Under the pieces are notes generated by a model. It saw nothing but the letters and a program-made list of their open reading frames with translations, did no database searches and was not told the origin of the DNA. This document shows positions 14,345-20,285 of a DNA stretch of 33,627 bases, one piece after another. How positions within the stretch are numbered: position 1 is the stretch's first letter; each line of letters begins with the position of its first letter. The stretch comes from a phage, in NCBI GenBank assembly GCA_012551655.1, contig GCA_012551655.1_3034.1; one strand, given 5' to 3'. Both the position numbers and the translations under genes were made by a program.

Positions 14345-14980
14345 TCACAGTTCAGATGCTACAGTGATTACTGCTTCAATGTTTTCTACCGAGCGTTTAA
14401 TGTCAAGATACACATTACCGTTTTTAGCGATTTTACATGACATTCCGATGTCAGTAAATTTCTGAATATGATGTTCCATCATTTTATATCCAAAAATTCG
14501 CATATTTCCATTGTTGTTAATTTCAAAATTACGAATTCCGTGAGTGCGTTTTTCTAAAATAGCGAGATAGTTACTGCGATAAGTTTCAACCTTTTTAAGA
14601 ACAAATCCATTTTCATCTAAAAGTTTTAACATGAGGTCTTTATCTTCTTCCATATCGGAAGTAATCTCACGAGCTTTACGAGTTGCTCGTTTTTTCAGCA
14701 GTTCCGGAGCATTTTCCTGTGCGTATAAAGTTGCTGCATTTGAAATAATATCCTGAGCTTCACCTGTAATGATTAATCCATCACCAGATTTCTCCACCAG
14801 GCCTTTTTTAATCAATACCCCAATATTACTATTAACTACTGCGTTACCTAAATCTGGATGCACCTCACGAACTTCTGCAGCTGTAATGAAATCTTTCTTA
14901 GCAATGGTAATTAAAATCGCAGCAGTTTTTTCATTCAGAACATCGTTAGAAGCTTTGATGATGTAAGTTACTTTAGACAT
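14345..14980 (-). CDS. motA: MotA middle-transcription activator (211 aa)
   Basis: MSKVTYIIKASNDVLNEKTAAILITIAKKDFITAAEVREVHPDLG... matches recalled T4 MotA; 211 aa. Confidence 0.9.
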   Translation of the reverse strand: MSKVTYIIKASNDVLNEKTAAILITIAKKDFITAAEVREVHPDLGNAVVNSNIGVLIKKGLVEKSGDGLIITGEAQDIISNAATLYAQENAPELLKKRATRKAREITSDMEEDKDLMLKLLDENGFVLKKVETYRSNYLAILEKRTHGIRNFEINNNGNMRIFGYKMMEHHIQKFTDIGMSCKIAKNGNVYLDIKRSVENIEAVITVASEL

Positions 14981-16902: not shown

Positions 16903-17043
16903 TTACCATACTAGTGAATGTAGTGCCATAATAACATCAGAAATGAAAAGCACGACTTGAATTAATCCGAACATTATTCCGTGATATAACGCTACCAATA
17001 AAGTAGCAAGGGCTAGTGAATAGCCCAAGATTTTCTTAATCAT
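16903..17043 (-). CDS. Hypothetical 46-aa hydrophobic membrane peptide immediately upstream of 52
   Basis: MIKKILGYSLALATLLVALYHGIMFGLIQVVLFISDVIMALHSLVW; stop 4 nt before the 52 ATG (52 has no good SD, so coupling is plausible); own SD weak. Confidence 0.4.
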   Translation of the reverse strand: MIKKILGYSLALATLLVALYHGIMFGLIQVVLFISDVIMALHSLVW

Positions 17044-17194
17044 TAGTAGATAACAACACAAATGTTAAATATGCACACATACCCTGGGCTAAAGCTTGTG
17101 AAAACACACTGCTAGCATCGATACAGATAGTTAAAACACATGCTACTATCCAACAAATAAATGAAATAACTCCTAATAATTTTGCGATATTCAT
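17036..17194 (-). CDS. Ac-like small membrane protein, copy 1 (52 aa)
   Basis: Track ORF 17036..17224 trimmed to ATG at 17194 with GAGGAG SD; MNIAKLLGVISFICWIVACVLTICIDASSVFSQALAQGMCAYLTFVLLSTND; size and position of T4 ac. Confidence 0.55.
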   Translation of the reverse strand: MNIAKLLGVISFICWIVACVLTICIDASSVFSQALAQGMCAYLTFVLLSTND

Positions 17195-17204
17195 AATATT
17201 CTCC

Positions 17205-17360
17205 TCAACTATTTTTAGAACCAATGTACGCGAATAATGATAAAATCGCTAATACGCCCTGAGCAGATGCTTGCAAAAATACTGAAGTTTCTCCAGTTAT
17301 TACTGTTCCGATGCATAAAAAGAACCAACAGAAAAAGGCTATACCGTGAACAAGTTTCAT
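17205..17360 (-). CDS. Ac-like small membrane protein, copy 2 (51 aa), paralog of copy 1
   Basis: ATG at 17360 with GAGGA SD; MKLVHGIAFFCWFFLCIGTVITGETSVFLQASAQGVLAILSLFAYIGSKNS; shares F-x-CW...SVF-Q-A-AQG pattern with copy 1; not in the ORF track. Confidence 0.55.
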   Translation of the reverse strand: MKLVHGIAFFCWFFLCIGTVITGETSVFLQASAQGVLAILSLFAYIGSKNS

Positions 17361-17367
17361 ATTTTCC

Positions 17368-17448
17368 TCACTGGCGTCCGAAGACGCCTTTAGTTTTAAG
17401 ATTGTTACGATAGAACTGCATCACATGTTCGTTATGGAAATTACTCAT
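17368..17448 (-). CDS. stp: Stp peptide (26 aa)
   Basis: Reverse translation gives [26 protein letters not shown], which I recognise as T4 Stp; ATG overlaps the ndd stop by 1 nt; 3' end contains a GGCGUC-UUCG-GACGCC hairpin. Confidence 0.8.
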
Positions 17449-17906
17449 TAATATGCCTGCAAAACAAATTTAAAGTTATCAGCCAACATACGGTTCATTT
17501 CTTCAAGTGTTTGATACTCAGAATGATGATTACGAGTAAACGCCAAAGCTAACTGACCTTTACCAAATCCCGTCGTCAGAGGTTTCATCTTAGAAGCAGG
17601 CAGATAAAATACTGTGTATGGAACATTGTTATTTGCAATAGTACGCGCAAGCTGAGACCGACGCTGACGAATATGACTTAGAACCGCACTGAATCCTTGC
17701 TTAGAACGCTGATTACCTACATAAAATCGTGCAGACACGCACGGATTACTAAATGGACGACCATCTAATTTACACACTAAAAAGTAAAATCCAGGTTTAG
17801 ATAAAATATCTTTGTGTGGAGTTCCCAAAAACCACTCACCGTTCTTGATTGTACCAATAACGGTAGCGCCTGCATTATTCAGATCAGTAACAGTCATATA
17901 TTTCAT
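17448..17906 (-). CDS. ndd: Ndd nucleoid disruption protein (151 aa)
   Basis: Track ORF 17448..17954 trimmed to ATG at 17906 (GAGGA SD): [21 protein letters not shown]... matches recalled T4 Ndd. Confidence 0.85.
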
Positions 17907-17938
17907 ATTAATTTCCTCTAAATTATTTTCTACTCCAA

Positions 17939-17960
17939 GGCCGCATGAATACACGCGGCC
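17939..17960 (-). other. Intergenic hairpin GGCCGC...GCGGCC upstream of ndd
   Basis: 6-bp GC stem with 10-nt loop; no U-tract. Confidence 0.4.
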
Positions 17961-17966
17961 ATTAAA

Positions 17967-18182
17967 TTAATCGTCGCAGTCGACGCTCAATTCCCAAAAC
18001 TCTTCTACGGTATAAGTTTCAGTATCATTTTCAATACAGAAACGTTCATTACTATTGTTTGCTAAAGTAGCATTAACTGTCATTTTCTCGCTAGTGCTCT
18101 TAAGTGGTGAAATACGAATTAACTGATCACCATTATCTAAACAAAAAATTTCACCAACTTTTACATCTTTAAAGCTTTTCAT
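17967..18182 (-). CDS. Hypothetical acidic 71-aa protein
   Basis: ATG with GAGGTGA SD; MKSFKDVKVGEIFCLDNGDQLIRISPLK... Confidence 0.55.
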   Translation of the reverse strand: MKSFKDVKVGEIFCLDNGDQLIRISPLKSTSEKMTVNATLANNSNERFCIENDTETYTVEEFWELSVDCDD

Positions 18183-18190
18183 AATTCACC

Positions 18191-18301
18191 TCAAGGAGTA
18201 TAAAATCCAAATGCAGTTGTTGACCATCCCATCCAATATGGGAAATTTGCACCAATGTAAAACATAAGAATATAAAACCAACCGCTCAGCAAATTCATCA
18301 T
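18191..18301 (-). CDS. Hypothetical 36-aa hydrophobic peptide
   Basis: MMNLLSGWFYILMFYIGANFPYWMGWSTTAFGFYTP; ATG overlaps the upstream stop (ATGA). Confidence 0.3.
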   Translation of the reverse strand: MMNLLSGWFYILMFYIGANFPYWMGWSTTAFGFYTP

Positions 18302-18495
18302 TTTACACCGTTCCAAATTGTTTCAACCACAGATTTTAAACCATTTTGATGAATATCCATTCCGACTACTGCCATCAAATAGATTCCAACTACAACTGAA
18401 CCTAAGGCAAAAATCAGCATGAAAATGAATAAAGCCGGAAAAATATTATCGAAAAACCATTCAATAAATGTAAAAGCACTGCGTTTACGCTTCAT
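18298..18495 (-). CDS. Hypothetical 65-aa membrane protein
   Basis: Track ORF 18298..18516 starts at TTG; ATG at 18495 with GAGGA SD gives MKRKRSAFTFIEWFFDNIFPALFIFMLIFALGSVVVGIYLMAVVG... Confidence 0.5.
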   Translation of the reverse strand: MKRKRSAFTFIEWFFDNIFPALFIFMLIFALGSVVVGIYLMAVVGMDIHQNGLKSVVETIWNGVK

Positions 18496-18502
18496 ATTTT
18501 CC

Positions 18503-18616
18503 TCACATAAATCCAAAGTAAACGTTTAATACATCAATCATTAAAACGATTGGGAATATACTCAAAACTATTAGTATTATAACTACATTCCATATAGCTT
18601 TAATAATCTTTTTCAT
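18503..18616 (-). CDS. Hypothetical 37-aa membrane peptide
   Basis: ATG at 18616 directly after promoter leader and SD GGAGGA: MKKIIKAIWNVVIILIVLSIFPIVLMIDVLNVYFGFM; the 82-aa track ORF is an N-terminal over-extension across the promoter. Confidence 0.45.
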   Translation of the reverse strand: MKKIIKAIWNVVIILIVLSIFPIVLMIDVLNVYFGFM

Positions 18617-18644
18617 TTTCTGTTCCTCCGTAGTTGATAGGGTA

Positions 18645-18674
18645 ATAGTACCACGGAAGAACAGTCTTGTAAAC
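18645..18674 (-). promoter_or_regulatory. T4-type early promoter
   Basis: GTTTAC (18674-18669), 18 bp, TACTAT (18650-18645), leader tatcaactacggagga. Confidence 0.5.
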
Positions 18675-18681
18675 AACTTTT

Positions 18682-18780
18682 TTAAAAATATTCGTAATAA
18701 ATGTGAATACCAACTACTACCGCTGAAACCTGTGCAACCCACCACGCACAAGCAATAAGTACAGAATTCAAAATTTTCAT
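18682..18780 (-). CDS. Hypothetical 32-aa hydrophobic peptide
   Basis: MKILNSVLIACAWWVAQVSAVVVGIHIYYEYF; ATG overlaps stop of the upstream 28-aa ORF (ATGA). Confidence 0.3.
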   Translation of the reverse strand: MKILNSVLIACAWWVAQVSAVVVGIHIYYEYF

Positions 18781-18863
18781 AATAACCTCATCACAAAAGT
18801 AAATGTTAAACAAATTACTGGAATACTAATTAACCAAACGAAACACCACCATAATGAACTCAT
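18777..18863 (-). CDS. Hypothetical 28-aa hydrophobic peptide
   Basis: MSSLWWCFVWLISIPVICLTFTFVMRLL; ATG overlaps stop of the upstream 87-aa ORF (ATGA). Confidence 0.3.
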   Translation of the reverse strand: MSSLWWCFVWLISIPVICLTFTFVMRLL

Positions 18864-19123
18864 AGTTCAATCTCAGCGATTTTCATTTCATTACTATTAA
18901 TAGCCTCTTTAAGACTATCTGAAAGAATTACATTCCAGTGGTCATTCATATGACCATTAACTAAGCGTGTAATTTCTTCAGGAGTTGAAAAATAAGGCTG
19001 ATCAGACTCCCAATGCGATAATTCTAAGCGAGTATAAATCATGCCTTCATCATCGCTAGAATATTCAACTGACACAAACTCATCAGTTATTTTATGTTTA
19101 GCGTAATAAAATTTAAATTTCAT
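18860..19123 (-). CDS. Hypothetical 87-aa protein
   Basis: Track ORF 18860..19216 trimmed to ATG at 19123 after SD GGAGGAG: MKFKFYYAKHKITDEFVSVEYSSDDEGMIYTRLELSHWESDQPYF... Confidence 0.55.
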   Translation of the reverse strand: MKFKFYYAKHKITDEFVSVEYSSDDEGMIYTRLELSHWESDQPYFSTPEEITRLVNGHMNDHWNVILSDSLKEAINSNEMKIAEIEL

Positions 19124-19149
19124 TTTTACTCCTCCGTAGCTGATAGTTG

Positions 19150-19179
19150 TATAGTACCACGGTCCTTGTGGTATGTAAA
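19150..19179 (-). promoter_or_regulatory. T4-type early promoter
   Basis: GTTTAC (19179-19174), 18 bp, TACTAT (19155-19150), leader tatcagctacggaggag. Confidence 0.5.
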
Positions 19180-19197
19180 CCATTTTGTGAAATTTTT

Positions 19198-19755
19198 TTA
19201 AATGGAAAGATACCATCCGTTGTAGTTGCTTTTTCTTACAACCTTACGAAGGTCTTCTCTGTCACCGATGAACTTCGGAGTGTACTGGATGACACCTGGA
19301 TGAATTTCTTTAGTGTTGAATATAATTATACAGTCAGCGACTTGATGATTTAGAATGGGCCCTAGATTTATTCCAGAACCATATGGATACTCTCCGCTGC
19401 ATCCTGTTGTTACCGAAATCCAACGTGAGTCAGTTTGATGTGTCTTAACTTCTACACGAAGCCCGCAGTATCTTGGATGCGCCAATACATCCCATGCGTA
19501 TGTATACGGGTCATTAACATCCTCTTGGCCTTTATTGACATATCCGCTTAGCCAATCTGCTACAAAAAATTCTGCGTACACAGCAATACGGCATCTTTCG
19601 ATAACTTCTGCCTTATCCTGATTTGGGTTTTGTTTTAAAGAGTATCTTGCAGTATTAGCAATTTTGACCTTCATTTCACTAGTCAAGTCACTGTTCGATA
19701 GGGTAAATGTCGGAATCTGAAATAGTCTCTGTAGCCCCGGATTCGTTTTCTGCAT
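19198..19755 (-). CDS. denB: Endonuclease IV DenB (185 aa)
   Basis: 185 aa as T4 DenB; AGGAAAG SD before ATG at 19755; position between ndd cluster and rIIB. Confidence 0.75.
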   Translation of the reverse strand: MQKTNPGLQRLFQIPTFTLSNSDLTSEMKVKIANTARYSLKQNPNQDKAEVIERCRIAVYAEFFVADWLSGYVNKGQEDVNDPYTYAWDVLAHPRYCGLRVEVKTHQTDSRWISVTTGCSGEYPYGSGINLGPILNHQVADCIIIFNTKEIHPGVIQYTPKFIGDREDLRKVVRKSNYNGWYLSI

Positions 19756-20017
19756 TTAAACTTTCCTTTTTACCGCTGAGATAAGCGTTATACACTTTAA
19801 GAGTACCGTAGTAAATTCGGTCATTTTCATCTAAAGACACACGGTCAAGTTCATCAAGTTCCTTTTTATCCATGACTATAACATCATTGCAATAAAGAAA
19901 CCCAAGTTTTTCGTGACCAAACTCAAATTTATTACAGTACACAATATTAGCGTGATGATTTCCATGCAGTTTAATCTCTTTTATGTCGGAATCACCGATA
20001 TTCATACAATAAATCAT
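19688..20017 (-). CDS. Hypothetical 109-aa protein; 3' end overlaps denB by 68 nt
   Basis: ATG at 20017 with aaggaaaa SD directly after a terminator-like hairpin; acidic low-complexity C-terminal tail. Confidence 0.5.
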   Translation of the reverse strand: MIYCMNIGDSDIKEIKLHGNHHANIVYCNKFEFGHEKLGFLYCNDVIVMDKKELDELDRVSLDENDRIYYGTLKVYNAYLSGKKESLNAENESGATETISDSDIYPIEQ

Positions 20018-20033
20018 AATTTTTCCTTAAAAC

Positions 20034-20052
20034 AAAAGGGCCGAAGCCCTTT
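20034..20052 (-). terminator. UUCG-loop hairpin with flanking T-tracts (partial terminator)
   Basis: AAAGGGC-CGAA-GCCCTTT on plus (UUCG loop on minus); T-rich both sides; between the 64-aa and 109-aa ORFs. Confidence 0.5.
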
Positions 20053-20055
20053 ATT

Positions 20056-20250
20056 TTACTTGAATTGTGCAATTCTTTTCTCTAGACATTCAGCATAAGA
20101 TTTCATTGAGATGAACTGTGAAAGCAGCAGTTCTTGCTCAACTGCACTAACCGTTAGAAACTTTGTGCTTTCTAAAAATTTGCTCAGTGCATTAATTTTG
20201 AGCATTAATTGATCGTATTCTTCTTTTACTCGTGCTTGATAACCTAACAT
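20056..20250 (-). CDS. Hypothetical 64-aa protein between rIIB and denB
   Basis: ATG at 20250 with AAGGAAAA SD directly after the rIIB 3' hairpin; predicted helical (MLGYQARVKEEYDQLMLKINALSKFLEST...). Confidence 0.5.
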   Translation of the reverse strand: MLGYQARVKEEYDQLMLKINALSKFLESTKFLTVSAVEQELLLSQFISMKSYAECLEKRIAQFK

Positions 20251-20267
20251 AATTTTCCTTAATATGA

Positions 20268-20285
20268 TAAGGGCCGAAGCCCTTA
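20268..20285 (-). other. UUCG-loop hairpin spanning the rIIB stop codon
   Basis: TAAGGGC-CGAA-GCCCTTA on plus; minus-strand RNA GGGC-UUCG-GCCC. Confidence 0.5.

Follow-up and report, generated by a model that had tools for sequence, protein, structure and literature searches.

The window analysed here, a 33,627-nucleotide stretch of phage DNA, derives from a Tequatrovirus. Comparison with the T4 and RB14 annotations by tblastn identifies the small-gene block between its denB and ndd genes as the Tequatrovirus form of the "D-region" early block of T4. The reading frames in this block bear the marks of real genes under purifying selection, and their products are probably independent early accessory effectors that act at the inner membrane of the host. 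The genes ndd.1–ndd.6 are themselves already known: their annotation goes back to the T4 genome project, they belong to PHROG and Pfam DUF families, and recent genome-wide T4 screens covered them.

Seven ATG-initiated minus-strand ORFs of 87, 28, 32, 37, 65, 36, and 71 amino acids follow one another between positions 17967 and 19123 (Table 1), as the earlier note had described, and together they cover 93% of these 1157 nucleotides. Dinucleotide-preserving shuffles of the region (n = 2000) reach a mean coverage of 23% and a maximum of 70%, so that none attains the observed value; seven or more ORFs arise in 4 of the 2000 shuffles, none of them with the observed coverage. Strand and order match ndd.1–ndd.6 in the T4 and RB14 annotations. 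In T4 (NC_000866), the loci T4p269–T4p275 (ndd.1, ndd.2, ndd.2a/ndd.3, ndd.4, ndd.5, ndd.6) occupy the same place with the same order, strand, and early-promoter layout. The assignment to the ndd.1–ndd.6 position therefore stands for six of the ORFs, which are 97–100% identical to T4 products by tblastn; the 87-residue ORF (orfA) is not an ndd.x gene and has no counterpart in T4. All seven proteins give near full-length matches to PHROG families (2390, 8851, 5011, 3098, 2401, 4135, and 2183; E-values from 1.6e-17 to 3.3e-46).

Table 1. Position and main properties of the genes, promoters, and RNA element of the denB–ndd interval.
Feature	Coordinates	Strand	Description
denB (endonuclease IV)	19198..19755	-	upstream flank; 97% identical to T4 DenB
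early promoter P1	19151..19180	-	GTTTACA-17-TGGTACTAT; TTTACA-17-TACTAT at 19179-19151; between denB and orfA, just outside 17967-19123
orfA	18860-19123	-	87 aa, soluble; RB69ORF270c / RB14ncORF269c family; Shine-Dalgarno GGAGGAG
ndd.6	18777-18863	-	28 aa, predicted single-helix hydrophobic micro-protein; phrog_8851; 100% identical to T4 Ndd.6
ndd.5	18682-18780	-	32 aa, predicted single-helix hydrophobic micro-protein; phrog_5011; 100% identical to T4 Ndd.5
early promoter P2	18645..18674	-	GTTTACA-17-TGGTACTAT; TTTACA-17-TACTAT at 18673-18645; within the cluster
ndd.4	18503-18616	-	37 aa; basic N-terminus, one predicted TM helix; phrog_3098; 100% identical to T4 over 37 aa
65-aa gene	18298-18495	-	T4 ndd.3 + ndd.2a; Pfam DUF7248 (PF23906)
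ndd.2	18191-18301	-	36 aa from first ATG; conserved second ATG at 18298 gives 35 aa (18191..18298); phrog_4135; 97% identical to T4 Ndd.2
ndd.1	17967-18182	-	71 aa, soluble, acidic; Shine-Dalgarno GAGGTG; phrog_2183; 98% identical to T4 Ndd.1
RNA hairpin	17939..17960	-	GGCCGCGUG-UAUU-CAUGCGGCC; between ndd.1 and ndd; no U-run after it
ndd (nucleoid disruption protein)	17448..17906	-	downstream flank; 96% identical to T4 Ndd

The window differs from the T4 reference in three respects. Where the window has a single 65-residue gene, NC_000866 shows two, ndd.3 (26 aa) and ndd.2a (40 aa). This split arises because the reference is one base short in codon 3 of the 65-residue gene (ATGAA-CGT); the modern T4 assembly OZ209023.1 contains the intact 65-residue ORF, and the product from the window is 98% identical to the ndd.2a frame. 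Second, T4 ndd.4 is annotated with 42 residues, starting from an ATG within the Shine-Dalgarno sequence. In the window this ATG is replaced by ACG, which leaves the 37-residue start as the sole option. The third difference is orfA upstream of ndd.6, of which T4 retains only the last ~10 codons. The likely starts are those that give 37 residues for ndd.4 and 35 residues for ndd.2; of 17 relatives, 4 carry ATA in place of the first ATG of ndd.2. The old labels "outer membrane," "periplasmic," and "naphthalene dioxygenase" attached to genes of this block are unfounded.

The products fall into two kinds. The earlier note had counted four hydrophobic proteins, and those of 28, 32, 37, and 65 residues are indeed strongly so (GRAVY 0.85–1.88; best 19-residue window 2.2–3.1); the 36-residue product of ndd.2 (GRAVY 0.62) has to be added, which brings the number to five of seven. 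Their best 19-residue Kyte–Doolittle windows score 2.33, 2.17, 3.06 (ndd.4), 2.71, and 1.17, and by hydropathy all five have the profile of small single-pass membrane proteins, with a hydrophobic helix of about 19 or more residues in fewer than about 70 amino acids. From hydropathy and charge bias, the positive-inside rule predicts an N-in/C-out orientation in the host inner membrane for the products of ndd.5, ndd.4, and the 65-residue gene and, less certainly, for that of ndd.2; the product of ndd.6 is predicted to be C-in. Bacterial AcrZ, MgtS, and MgrB as well as T4 Ac, 52.1, Imm, and Sp share the size class and the single transmembrane helix, and the neighboring genes ac and 52.1 encode small membrane proteins of a similar kind. 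None of these proteins is related in sequence to the products of the cluster, and the comparison is offered as a "works-like" analogy.

Each family carries its own signature. The motif SSKxWCxIWxxxIPxIC of ndd.6 is shared by 22 distinct sequences that span several genera, and ndd.5 was seen in Tequatrovirus only in the cross-genus comparison. Of all the genes in the cluster, ndd.4 is conserved most widely; its motif MKKxLKAIWN..VLxIFPxVxMID recurs in Dhakavirus, Gaprivervirus, Marfavirus, Cronobacter phage Pet-CM3-4, and Edwardsiella phage PEi20. The 65-residue protein combines a KRKR N-terminus, one long transmembrane segment, and the tail GLKSVxxxxWNG, which is conserved at the C-terminus; residues 6–63 match PF23906 with 71.9 bits (cutoff 27), and this model also matches six of six diverged homologues. 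The aromatic-rich, hydrophobic ndd.2 product contains no charged residue, and its motif GxNxPYWxG is present in Klebsiella Marfavirus, Pet-CM3-4, and PEi20. The orfA product matches phrog_2390 over its full length (3e-46). It occurs in the same place in RB14, is 67% identical to its homologue in Mosigvirus JK42, and represents one of three alleles with ~50% identity that circulate in Tequatrovirus. For Ndd.1, an exhaustive HMMER search among 1.84 billion representative proteins returned only ~5 real clusters; with a pLDDT of 44, the AF2 model is of no use.

Family, structure, and defense-library searches gave no clue to function. With all seven proteins as queries, DUF7248 was the sole match in Pfam, NCBIfam, and PADLOC; PADLOC returned nothing at E ≤ 1, and no relevant exclusion or defense family was found in Pfam or NCBIfam. 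Sequence searches of the PDB with Ndd.1 and with the ndd.4 and DUF7248 family profiles gave no match. A word-indexed search with the 65-residue protein, Ndd.1, and orfA recovered close T4-like relatives only, and a structure search of BFVD recovered uncharacterized phage proteins only.

Substitution patterns support the view that these frames are real genes. Among 18 Tequatrovirus sequences, pN/pS is 0.12 for ndd.6, 0.09 for ndd.5, 0.07 for the 65-residue gene, 0.12 for ndd.2, and 0.11 for ndd.1, compared with 0.05 for denB, 0.09 for ndd, and 0.04 for stp as references. Where a gene has sufficient variable sites, its shifted frames yield values from 0.8 to >3 or are not estimable. In ndd.5, 11 of 14 variable sites are third codon positions. 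The in-genus value for ndd.4 (0.64) is based on 7 variable sites only and is uninformative; across genera, dN/dS for this gene is 0.15–0.16 at 61% identity. The corresponding values are 0.17–0.36 for ndd.1 and about 0.4–0.8 (0.42–0.76) for ndd.6, the latter from only 28 codons with few informative sites. The amino acid motifs are conserved despite saturated synonymous sites. The lack of conservation in related phages that would have counted against the earlier note is not seen: the frames are conserved and under purifying selection.

The genes are retained in about 492–495 of 495 Tequatrovirus records. By blastn with at least 80% coverage, ndd.6 plus ndd.5 are found in 494 Tequatrovirus records, ndd.4 in 495, the 65-residue gene plus ndd.2 in 492, and ndd.1 in 495, with the Tequatrovirus-type ndd in 495. 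The five membrane genes are nearly invariant within the genus. Subsets of the families, in conserved order between denB and ndd, occur in Mosigvirus, Dhakavirus, Gaprivervirus, Klebsiella Marfavirus, Cronobacter Pet-CM3-4, Edwardsiella PEi20, and Salmonella CGG4-1. Neighbors that are coupled in the window can occur apart in other genera: ndd.6 without ndd.5, the 65-residue gene without ndd.2, and ndd.2 without the 65-residue gene. We therefore rejected the idea that the products form one obligate complex. Natural loss, breakage, or fusion within the cluster in ESH35, T2, and Sf25 shows that individual genes are expendable.

Two sigma-70-type T4 early promoters appear to drive the block. The earlier note had placed both inside the cluster; this holds for P2, and P1 lies at the upstream edge, outside the cluster. 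P1 scores 9/12 in a consensus scan and has a TG before its −10 box, as does P2, which is followed by the leader TATCAACTACGGAGGAACAGAAA. Both promoters are conserved in 18 of 18 aligned Tequatrovirus sequences, and P2 is nearly invariant. The same promoter-plus-leader module also occurs at positions 14979, 15309, and 27323 of the window, each time at another early gene; hence, it is not a repeat peculiar to this locus. A further promoter-like site within the 65-residue gene (18474-18445, 10/12) was put down to chance, since the number of sites in the scan does not exceed that in shuffles (10 vs 10.6).

This promoter layout resembles the PeSL (promoter-early stem-loop) cassettes, which are shuffled as modules in T4-like phages (Arbiol 2010, PMC2839356; Comeau 2014, PMC4122927). 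P1 and P2 fit the T4/PST early-promoter consensus TTTACW-N17-TAYWAT (PMC4122927), and the example in Figure 6A of Comeau 2014, T4 ndd.4/ndd.5 compared with ORF268/269 of phage PST, is the same locus (PMC4122927). In the 18 Tequatrovirus sequences, the promoter P1 is constant, and the cassette that follows it differs: relatives carry orfA, RB32ORF266c plus orfA, RB32ORF266c alone, or neither. In contrast to the hyperplasticity of PeSL cassettes, the genes that follow orfA show almost no variation within Tequatrovirus. No convincing or terminator-like hairpin was called beside P1 or P2, and Rfam gave no match over positions 17000–20000.

The junctions between the genes are tight. ATGA stop–start overlaps, reported in the earlier note, were found at orfA/ndd.6, ndd.6/ndd.5, and 65-residue gene/ndd.2; at the last of these, the overlap reads TGATG or ATGA. 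Two other junctions are gaps of 7–8 nucleotides, with the stop codon embedded in the Shine-Dalgarno sequence of the next gene (TGAGGAAAATATG, TTGAGGTGAATTATG). A strong GGAGG Shine-Dalgarno sequence is found only on the first gene of each unit. Downstream of the block, ndd carries its own Shine-Dalgarno sequence and is separated from ndd.1 by 60 nucleotides and a hairpin. The centroid energy of this hairpin is −17.9 kcal/mol, and the 71-nucleotide segment folds at −19.4 kcal/mol (z = −3.5); the stem is preserved in 17 relatives via G–U pairs and compensating changes. This is the only strong hairpin; no promoter accompanies it, and it was not among the intrinsic terminators called.

Published T4 data fit the designation as uncharacterized early genes. 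RNA-seq classifies the RNAs of all ndd.1–ndd.6 genes as early (PMC9697503 supplement); this is a T4 observation, and for the window early transcription is read from the conserved promoter consensus. Mass spectrometry detected T4 Ndd.1 as an early protein and none of the five hydrophobic products (PMC9697503); for Ndd.4 (P39249, 5 kDa), the authors blame its small size. No ribosome-profiling study of T4 appeared among the results listed by a literature search, and no paper on the function of an ndd.x gene was found. These genes are dispensable for T4 in laboratory E. coli: CRISPRi-ART scores all of them as "Not Fit" (PMC11879866 supplement), HIDEN-SEQ as "Non-essential" (10.1101/2025.11.20.689424 supplement), and a phage with the sa-delta-9 deletion, which lacks the whole block, still reaches 50% of the wild-type yield (PMC6071114). 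Deletion on hosts with defense systems, proposed in the earlier note, has partly been done: a saturated HIDEN-SEQ insertion library of T4 was challenged with RexAB, RnlAB, CBASS, DarTG1, and DarTG2. The named hits are other genes, the ndd.x genes are likewise absent from the hits named for minimal medium, and each ndd.x gene seen in one conditional table has q = 1.0 (10.1101/2025.11.20.689424). Neither knock-down nor transposon insertion had an effect on fitness.

How may these small proteins work? Judging from sequence and T4 data, P1 and P2 would give rise to mRNAs within minutes of infection: one unit covers orfA, ndd.6, and ndd.5, the other ndd.4, the 65-residue gene, ndd.2, and ndd.1; read-through from upstream probably adds transcripts. 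Since the later genes start at ATGA/TGATG overlaps or 7–8 nucleotides past stops embedded in Shine-Dalgarno sequences, ribosomes probably pass on from one gene to the next (translational coupling). The five single-helix proteins of 28–65 residues are predicted to enter the host inner membrane, and orfA and Ndd.1 would remain small soluble proteins. Each family has its own conserved motifs of polar, aromatic, or proline residues, and the combination of families differs by genus. Selection on these motifs, together with the varied combinations, leads us to infer that each protein may bind its own target in the envelope or membrane rather than serve as a subunit of a complex. Because the genes are dispensable in laboratory E. 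coli, their benefit must be conditional on host strain, defense system, competing phage, or physiology. The label "accessory effector" is in part a default conclusion. The earlier wording, that membrane-targeted host-takeover or exclusion functions are plausible but unproven, still fits the state of knowledge.

A rival reading would be a counter-defense or exclusion arsenal, in which the micro-proteins block membrane-acting defenses (abortive-infection pores, Rex-like systems) or superinfecting phages in the manner of T4 Imm and Sp. The genes are early, membrane-directed, non-essential, and adjoin the anti-RexAB genes rIIA/rIIB; gene content is mosaic across genera, and the three divergent orfA alleles within one genus form a pattern frequent in arms-race genes. 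The hits named by HIDEN-SEQ nevertheless lie elsewhere, none of the seven proteins matches an exclusion or defense model in Pfam or PADLOC at E ≤ 1, and the near invariance of the membrane genes within Tequatrovirus is unlike that of fast-evolving counter-defense genes. We consider this reading unlikely. Less likely still is lipid remodeling, whereby one or several of the membrane micro-proteins would raise early phosphatidylglycerol (PG) synthesis via a host phospholipid enzyme. The switch of T4-infected cells from phosphatidylethanolamine (PE) to PG synthesis was first seen in 1968–69 and has been traced no more closely than to the sa-delta-9 region of ~3.4 kb. This deletion, which removes 52.1, ac, stp, ndd, ndd.1–6, and denB, abolishes the stimulation (Kutter et al. 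2018, PMC6071114); the partly overlapping deletion rII-delta-DD2 also lacks PG-specific stimulation, and a protein made within 5 min is required (PMC6071114). No named gene in the deletion accounts for the effect, and the cluster supplies five predicted early inner-membrane candidates. The mapping is coarse, however, the strains bore several further mutations, ac and 52.1 would serve just as well as membrane candidates, and no sequence link to lipid enzymes was seen. The narrower proposal that the ndd.4, ndd.2, or DUF7248 protein binds a host inner-membrane protein that carries out or regulates phospholipid synthesis, and is the long-sought T4 determinant of the PE-to-PG switch, is quite unlikely.

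In many genera the block strictly keeps its gene order and its place between denB and ndd, which could also mean that its products aid DenB and Ndd in the takeover of host DNA; they might, for instance, tether the disrupted nucleoid or Ndd to the inner membrane. The T4 annotation has Ndd binding host DNA to the membrane. Shared descent explains this synteny equally well, gene content differs between genera, and phages with the most divergent ndd (40–50% identity) have none of these families beside it. Cloned ndd by itself reportedly disrupts the nucleoid, as Bouet et al. are said to have found in 1998. A helper role is very unlikely in our view. We give scarcely any credence to the idea that the peptides are irrelevant, that is, chance or leader-type frames whose translation merely tunes mRNA stability or ndd expression. 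The frames are indeed hydrophobic, of very small size, and set in AT-rich DNA; the lack of a knock-down phenotype would also suit this idea, as would the GGAG motifs in both strong Shine-Dalgarno sites, which presumably could be targets of the T4 RegB nuclease. Against it stand the third-position bias and low pN/pS in the annotated frame only, the motifs conserved where synonymous sites are saturated, tiling far above that of shuffles, and the separate ribosome-binding site and spacing of ndd. Independent accessory effectors at the inner membrane remain our preferred explanation.

As a discovery, these results carry little weight; they do have some practical value. The tiny frames can now be treated as real genes that are selected, kept in nearly all Tequatrovirus, and kept in part in other T4-like groups. 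In the mended reference picture, one 65-residue gene replaces ndd.3 and ndd.2a. Functional models are narrowed to independent modules that, judging from the hits named in the T4 screen, are not needed against the five defense systems tested. Finally, the block offers a shortlist of candidates for the unexplained effect of T4 on host phospholipid synthesis.

The earlier note had described seven micro-ORFs on the minus strand between denB and ndd, an accurate observation: they cover 93% of 1157 nt, compared with a mean of 23% and a maximum of 70% in 2000 dinucleotide-preserving shuffles. Its ATGA stop–start overlaps are confirmed at three junctions. At two others, gaps of 7–8 nt place the stop codon within the Shine-Dalgarno sequence of the next gene. 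The two spacers of 65–74 nt each contain one promoter, followed by the leader TATCA(A/G)CTACGGAGGA. Both promoters had been placed inside the cluster, but only one lies there; the other sits just upstream of orfA, the 87-aa ORF. Likewise, four hydrophobic products (28, 32, 37 and 65 aa) had been counted correctly, but the 36-aa product, which contains no charged residues, makes five. The products of orfA and ndd.1 are hydrophilic. Between ndd.1 and ndd stands a conserved, GC-rich hairpin of 9 bp without a U-tract, followed by a GGAG motif; this hairpin may act in RNA processing or stability, or terminate transcription weakly.

Features of the cluster and its surroundings, with pN/pS in 18 Tequatrovirus sequences and results of the wider profile search
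Feature	Position	Strand	Description	pN/pS	Found in	Conserved motif
109-aa ORF	19688-20017	minus	RB32ORF268c type
37-nt module	20015-20051; 20248-20284	minus	two copies
denB	19755-19198	minus	known gene, upstream flank	0.05
Early promoter	19179-19151	minus	GTTTACA-17-TGGTACTAT
orfA	19123-18860	minus	87 aa, ATG		Tequatro-, Mosig-, Dhaka-, Gaprivervirus; three further IMG/VR loci
ndd.6	18863-18777	minus	28 aa, ATG	0.12	Tequatro-, Mosig-, Dhaka-, Gaprivervirus; Salmonella CGG4-1; PEi20 group	SSKxWCxIWxxxIPxIC
ndd.5	18780-18682	minus	32 aa, ATG	0.09	Tequatrovirus only
Early promoter	18673-18645	minus	GTTTACA-17-TGGTACTAT
ndd.4	18616-18503	minus	37 aa, ATG		Tequatro-, Dhaka-, Gapriver-, Marfavirus; Cronobacter Pet-CM3-4; Edwardsiella PEi20	MKKxLKAIWN..VLxIFPxVxMID
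16-mer repeat	18491-18506; 17356-17371	minus	GTGAGGAAAATATGAA
65-aa gene	18495-18298	minus	65 aa, ATG	0.07	Tequatro-, Gaprivervirus; Pet-CM3-4 group; PEi20	GLKSVxxxxWNG, C-terminal tail; TM segment variable
ndd.2	18301-18191	minus	36 aa; 35 aa from conserved second ATG	0.12	Tequatro-, Marfavirus; Pet-CM3-4; PEi20	GxNxPYWxG
ndd.1	18182-17967	minus	71 aa, ATG	0.11	Tequatro-, Mosig-, Dhaka-, Gaprivervirus	KxFKDxxVGExFxLxNGxQLIR
Hairpin	17939-17960	minus	9 bp
GGAG motif	17936-17933
ndd	17906-17448	minus	known gene, downstream flank	0.09
stp			known gene	0.04
ac paralogue	17205-17360	minus	51 aa, between stp and ac
ac	17036-17194		true orthologue
52.1	16903-17043		next after ac

The window belongs to a Tequatrovirus: megablast of the region hits 566 phage records, the best at 96–97% identity. 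Six ORFs are ndd.6, ndd.5, ndd.4, ndd.2a, ndd.2 and ndd.1, with 97–100% amino acid identity to the T4 and RB14 annotations. The proposed T4 ndd.1–ndd.6 position holds for these six but not for orfA, which is not a T4 gene and belongs to the RB69ORF270c/RB14ncORF269c family (phrog_2390). T4, RB3 and T2 keep only its last ~10 codons, bearing the ndd.6 coupling site; in RB3 and T2, the place of orfA is taken by a 68-aa gene of the RB32ORF266c type. PHROG holds a separate family for each of the seven ORFs, and the 65-aa protein is Pfam DUF7248. Many database records label ndd.1 and ndd.4 homologues as "naphthalene 1,2-dioxygenase", "outer membrane protein" or "periplasmic protein". Since profile searches found no support for these labels, they look like propagated annotation errors.

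The 65-aa gene corrects the T4 reference. At codon 3, within 18487-18495, NC_000866 is one base short, reading ATGAA-CGT where 16 other aligned sequences read ATGAAGCGT. T4 "ndd.3" (26 aa) is the out-of-frame head of this gene and "ndd.2a" (40 aa) its tail from Met26. The recent T4 assembly OZ209023.1 contains the intact ORF, and ndd.3 measures 82 nt in the T4 annotation behind HIDEN-SEQ (10.1101/2025.11.20.689424), a length pointing to an additional base in that version as well. Rather than two genes, the split thus reflects a stock polymorphism or an error in sequencing. In T2 record AP018813, the gene is broken into pieces of 32 and 25 aa. The 42-aa ndd.4 of T4 starts at an ATG within the Shine-Dalgarno sequence; because the window has ACG there, translation probably begins at the conserved start that gives 37 aa.

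In the alignment of 18 Tequatrovirus sequences, the frames are intact apart from three records: the T4 reference with its one-base gap, an IMG/VR contig (L003) with 2 nt inserted at the 3′ end of ndd.6, and Shigella phage ESH35 with a large deletion. Substitutions concentrate at third codon positions. Shifted frames of genes with enough variable sites give pN/pS from 0.8 to above 3 or are not estimable. Within the genus, ndd.4 varies at too few sites; in the comparison of Tequatrovirus with Dhakavirus, its dN/dS is 0.16 at 61% identity. The ndd.6 signal is weaker, 0.4–0.8 on 28 codons, with a clear motif kept. Frame conservation in relatives, one of the two points on which the earlier note let its reading depend, is what we observe (pN/pS 0.07–0.12). 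The three orfA alleles share ~50% amino acid identity (inter-allele dN/dS 0.13–0.43), with ~16 residues at the start and ~8 at the end conserved. This pattern points to an exchange of cassettes whose limits are the promoter leader and the ndd.6 coupling site. The alleles sit in otherwise ~95% identical Tequatrovirus genomes (18860-19123; loci L008-L010, L018 and L019). Comeau et al. (2014) described the locus as an example of gene replacement via promoter cassettes (PeSL; PMC4122927).

Blastn at coverage of at least 80% found ndd.6+5 in 494 records, ndd.4 in 495, the 65-aa gene with ndd.2 in 492 and ndd.1 in 495. Since 495 records contain Tequatrovirus-type ndd, the block is almost invariant within the genus. 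Iterated family profiles were also searched against all stop-to-stop frames of 42 ndd-bearing IMG/VR loci and of phage records from other genera. All matches fall in the interval from denB to ndd and keep the same order; in phages with ndd only 40–50% identical, the profiles found none of these families. Coupled neighbours occur singly in other phages, which favours independent modules over one obligate complex.

The 16-mer GTGAGGAAAATATGAA (stop, Shine-Dalgarno, start) is repeated exactly before the 65-aa gene and the ac paralogue. The latter encodes a hydrophobic protein 45% identical to the acridine-resistance protein Ac; T4 and most relatives lack it, and ESh30 and Sf23 are among the relatives matching right through. 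In ESH35 (L015, an UNVERIFIED record), a deletion at GTGAGGAAAATATGAA brings ndd.4 directly next to ac, with loss of the 65-aa gene, ndd.2, ndd.1, ndd and stp. Shigella phage Sf25 (P0007) encodes a 62-aa protein in which the first 31 residues of Ndd.4 continue in frame into the last 31 of the 65-aa protein, a chimera of two micro-genes produced naturally by deletion. Between rIIB and denB, two small genes are preceded by copies (81% identical) of a 37-nt module comprising a GC hairpin (AAGGGCTTCGGCCCTT), then a Shine-Dalgarno sequence and start codon. T4 lacks the 109-aa ORF, which shares 68 nt with the beginning of the 185-aa denB frame. As some relatives annotate denB from an internal ATG (158 aa), its start is ambiguous in phages with this gene.

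Library, structure and homology searches gave no functional clue for the seven proteins. The orfA model is a confident small α/β fold for which no known structural relative was found; the Ndd.1 model is unusable. In T4, all ndd.x transcripts are early, and Ndd.1 alone was detected as protein, the authors attributing non-detection to small size and naming the 5-kDa Ndd.4 (PMC9697503). All ndd.x genes scored "Not Fit" in CRISPRi-ART knock-down (PMC11879866) and non-essential in HIDEN-SEQ transposon mutagenesis (10.1101/2025.11.20.689424). This dispensability, like gene identity, selection and retention, is shown by the present analysis or by the T4 work cited. In the best-supported account, the cluster would form two early transcription units with translation coupled inside each. 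The products would be two small soluble proteins and five micro-proteins that span the inner membrane once, and each of the seven would act on the host envelope as an effector of its own, useful under certain conditions. We infer membrane insertion and effector action, as well as expression in this phage.

Several rivals compete with independent envelope effectors. The products could serve counter-defence or exclusion; HIDEN-SEQ with RexAB, RnlAB, CBASS, DarTG1, DarTG2 or minimal medium named other genes, not ndd.x, and among the entries listed from one conditional table, every ndd.x gene has q = 1.0 (10.1101/2025.11.20.689424). They could also remodel lipids. The T4 deletion sa-delta-9, spanning 52.1 through denB, has a burst of 50% of wild-type and abolishes the stimulation of phosphatidylglycerol synthesis, which is also lost in a partly overlapping deletion; these strains carried additional mutations (PMC6071114). 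Alternatively, the products might help DenB and Ndd, whose genes flank them, or the ORFs might be translated into peptide without function, a reading against which the low pN/pS values speak. The cautious view that membrane-targeted takeover or exclusion is plausible but unproven stands.

The genes of the cluster had been annotated before, and the block does not represent a novel type of system. Worth keeping are the correction of the T4 reference, the comparisons across phages, which show the micro-genes to be genuine and old, and a link, amenable to testing, with the as yet unexplained effect of T4 on host phospholipid synthesis.
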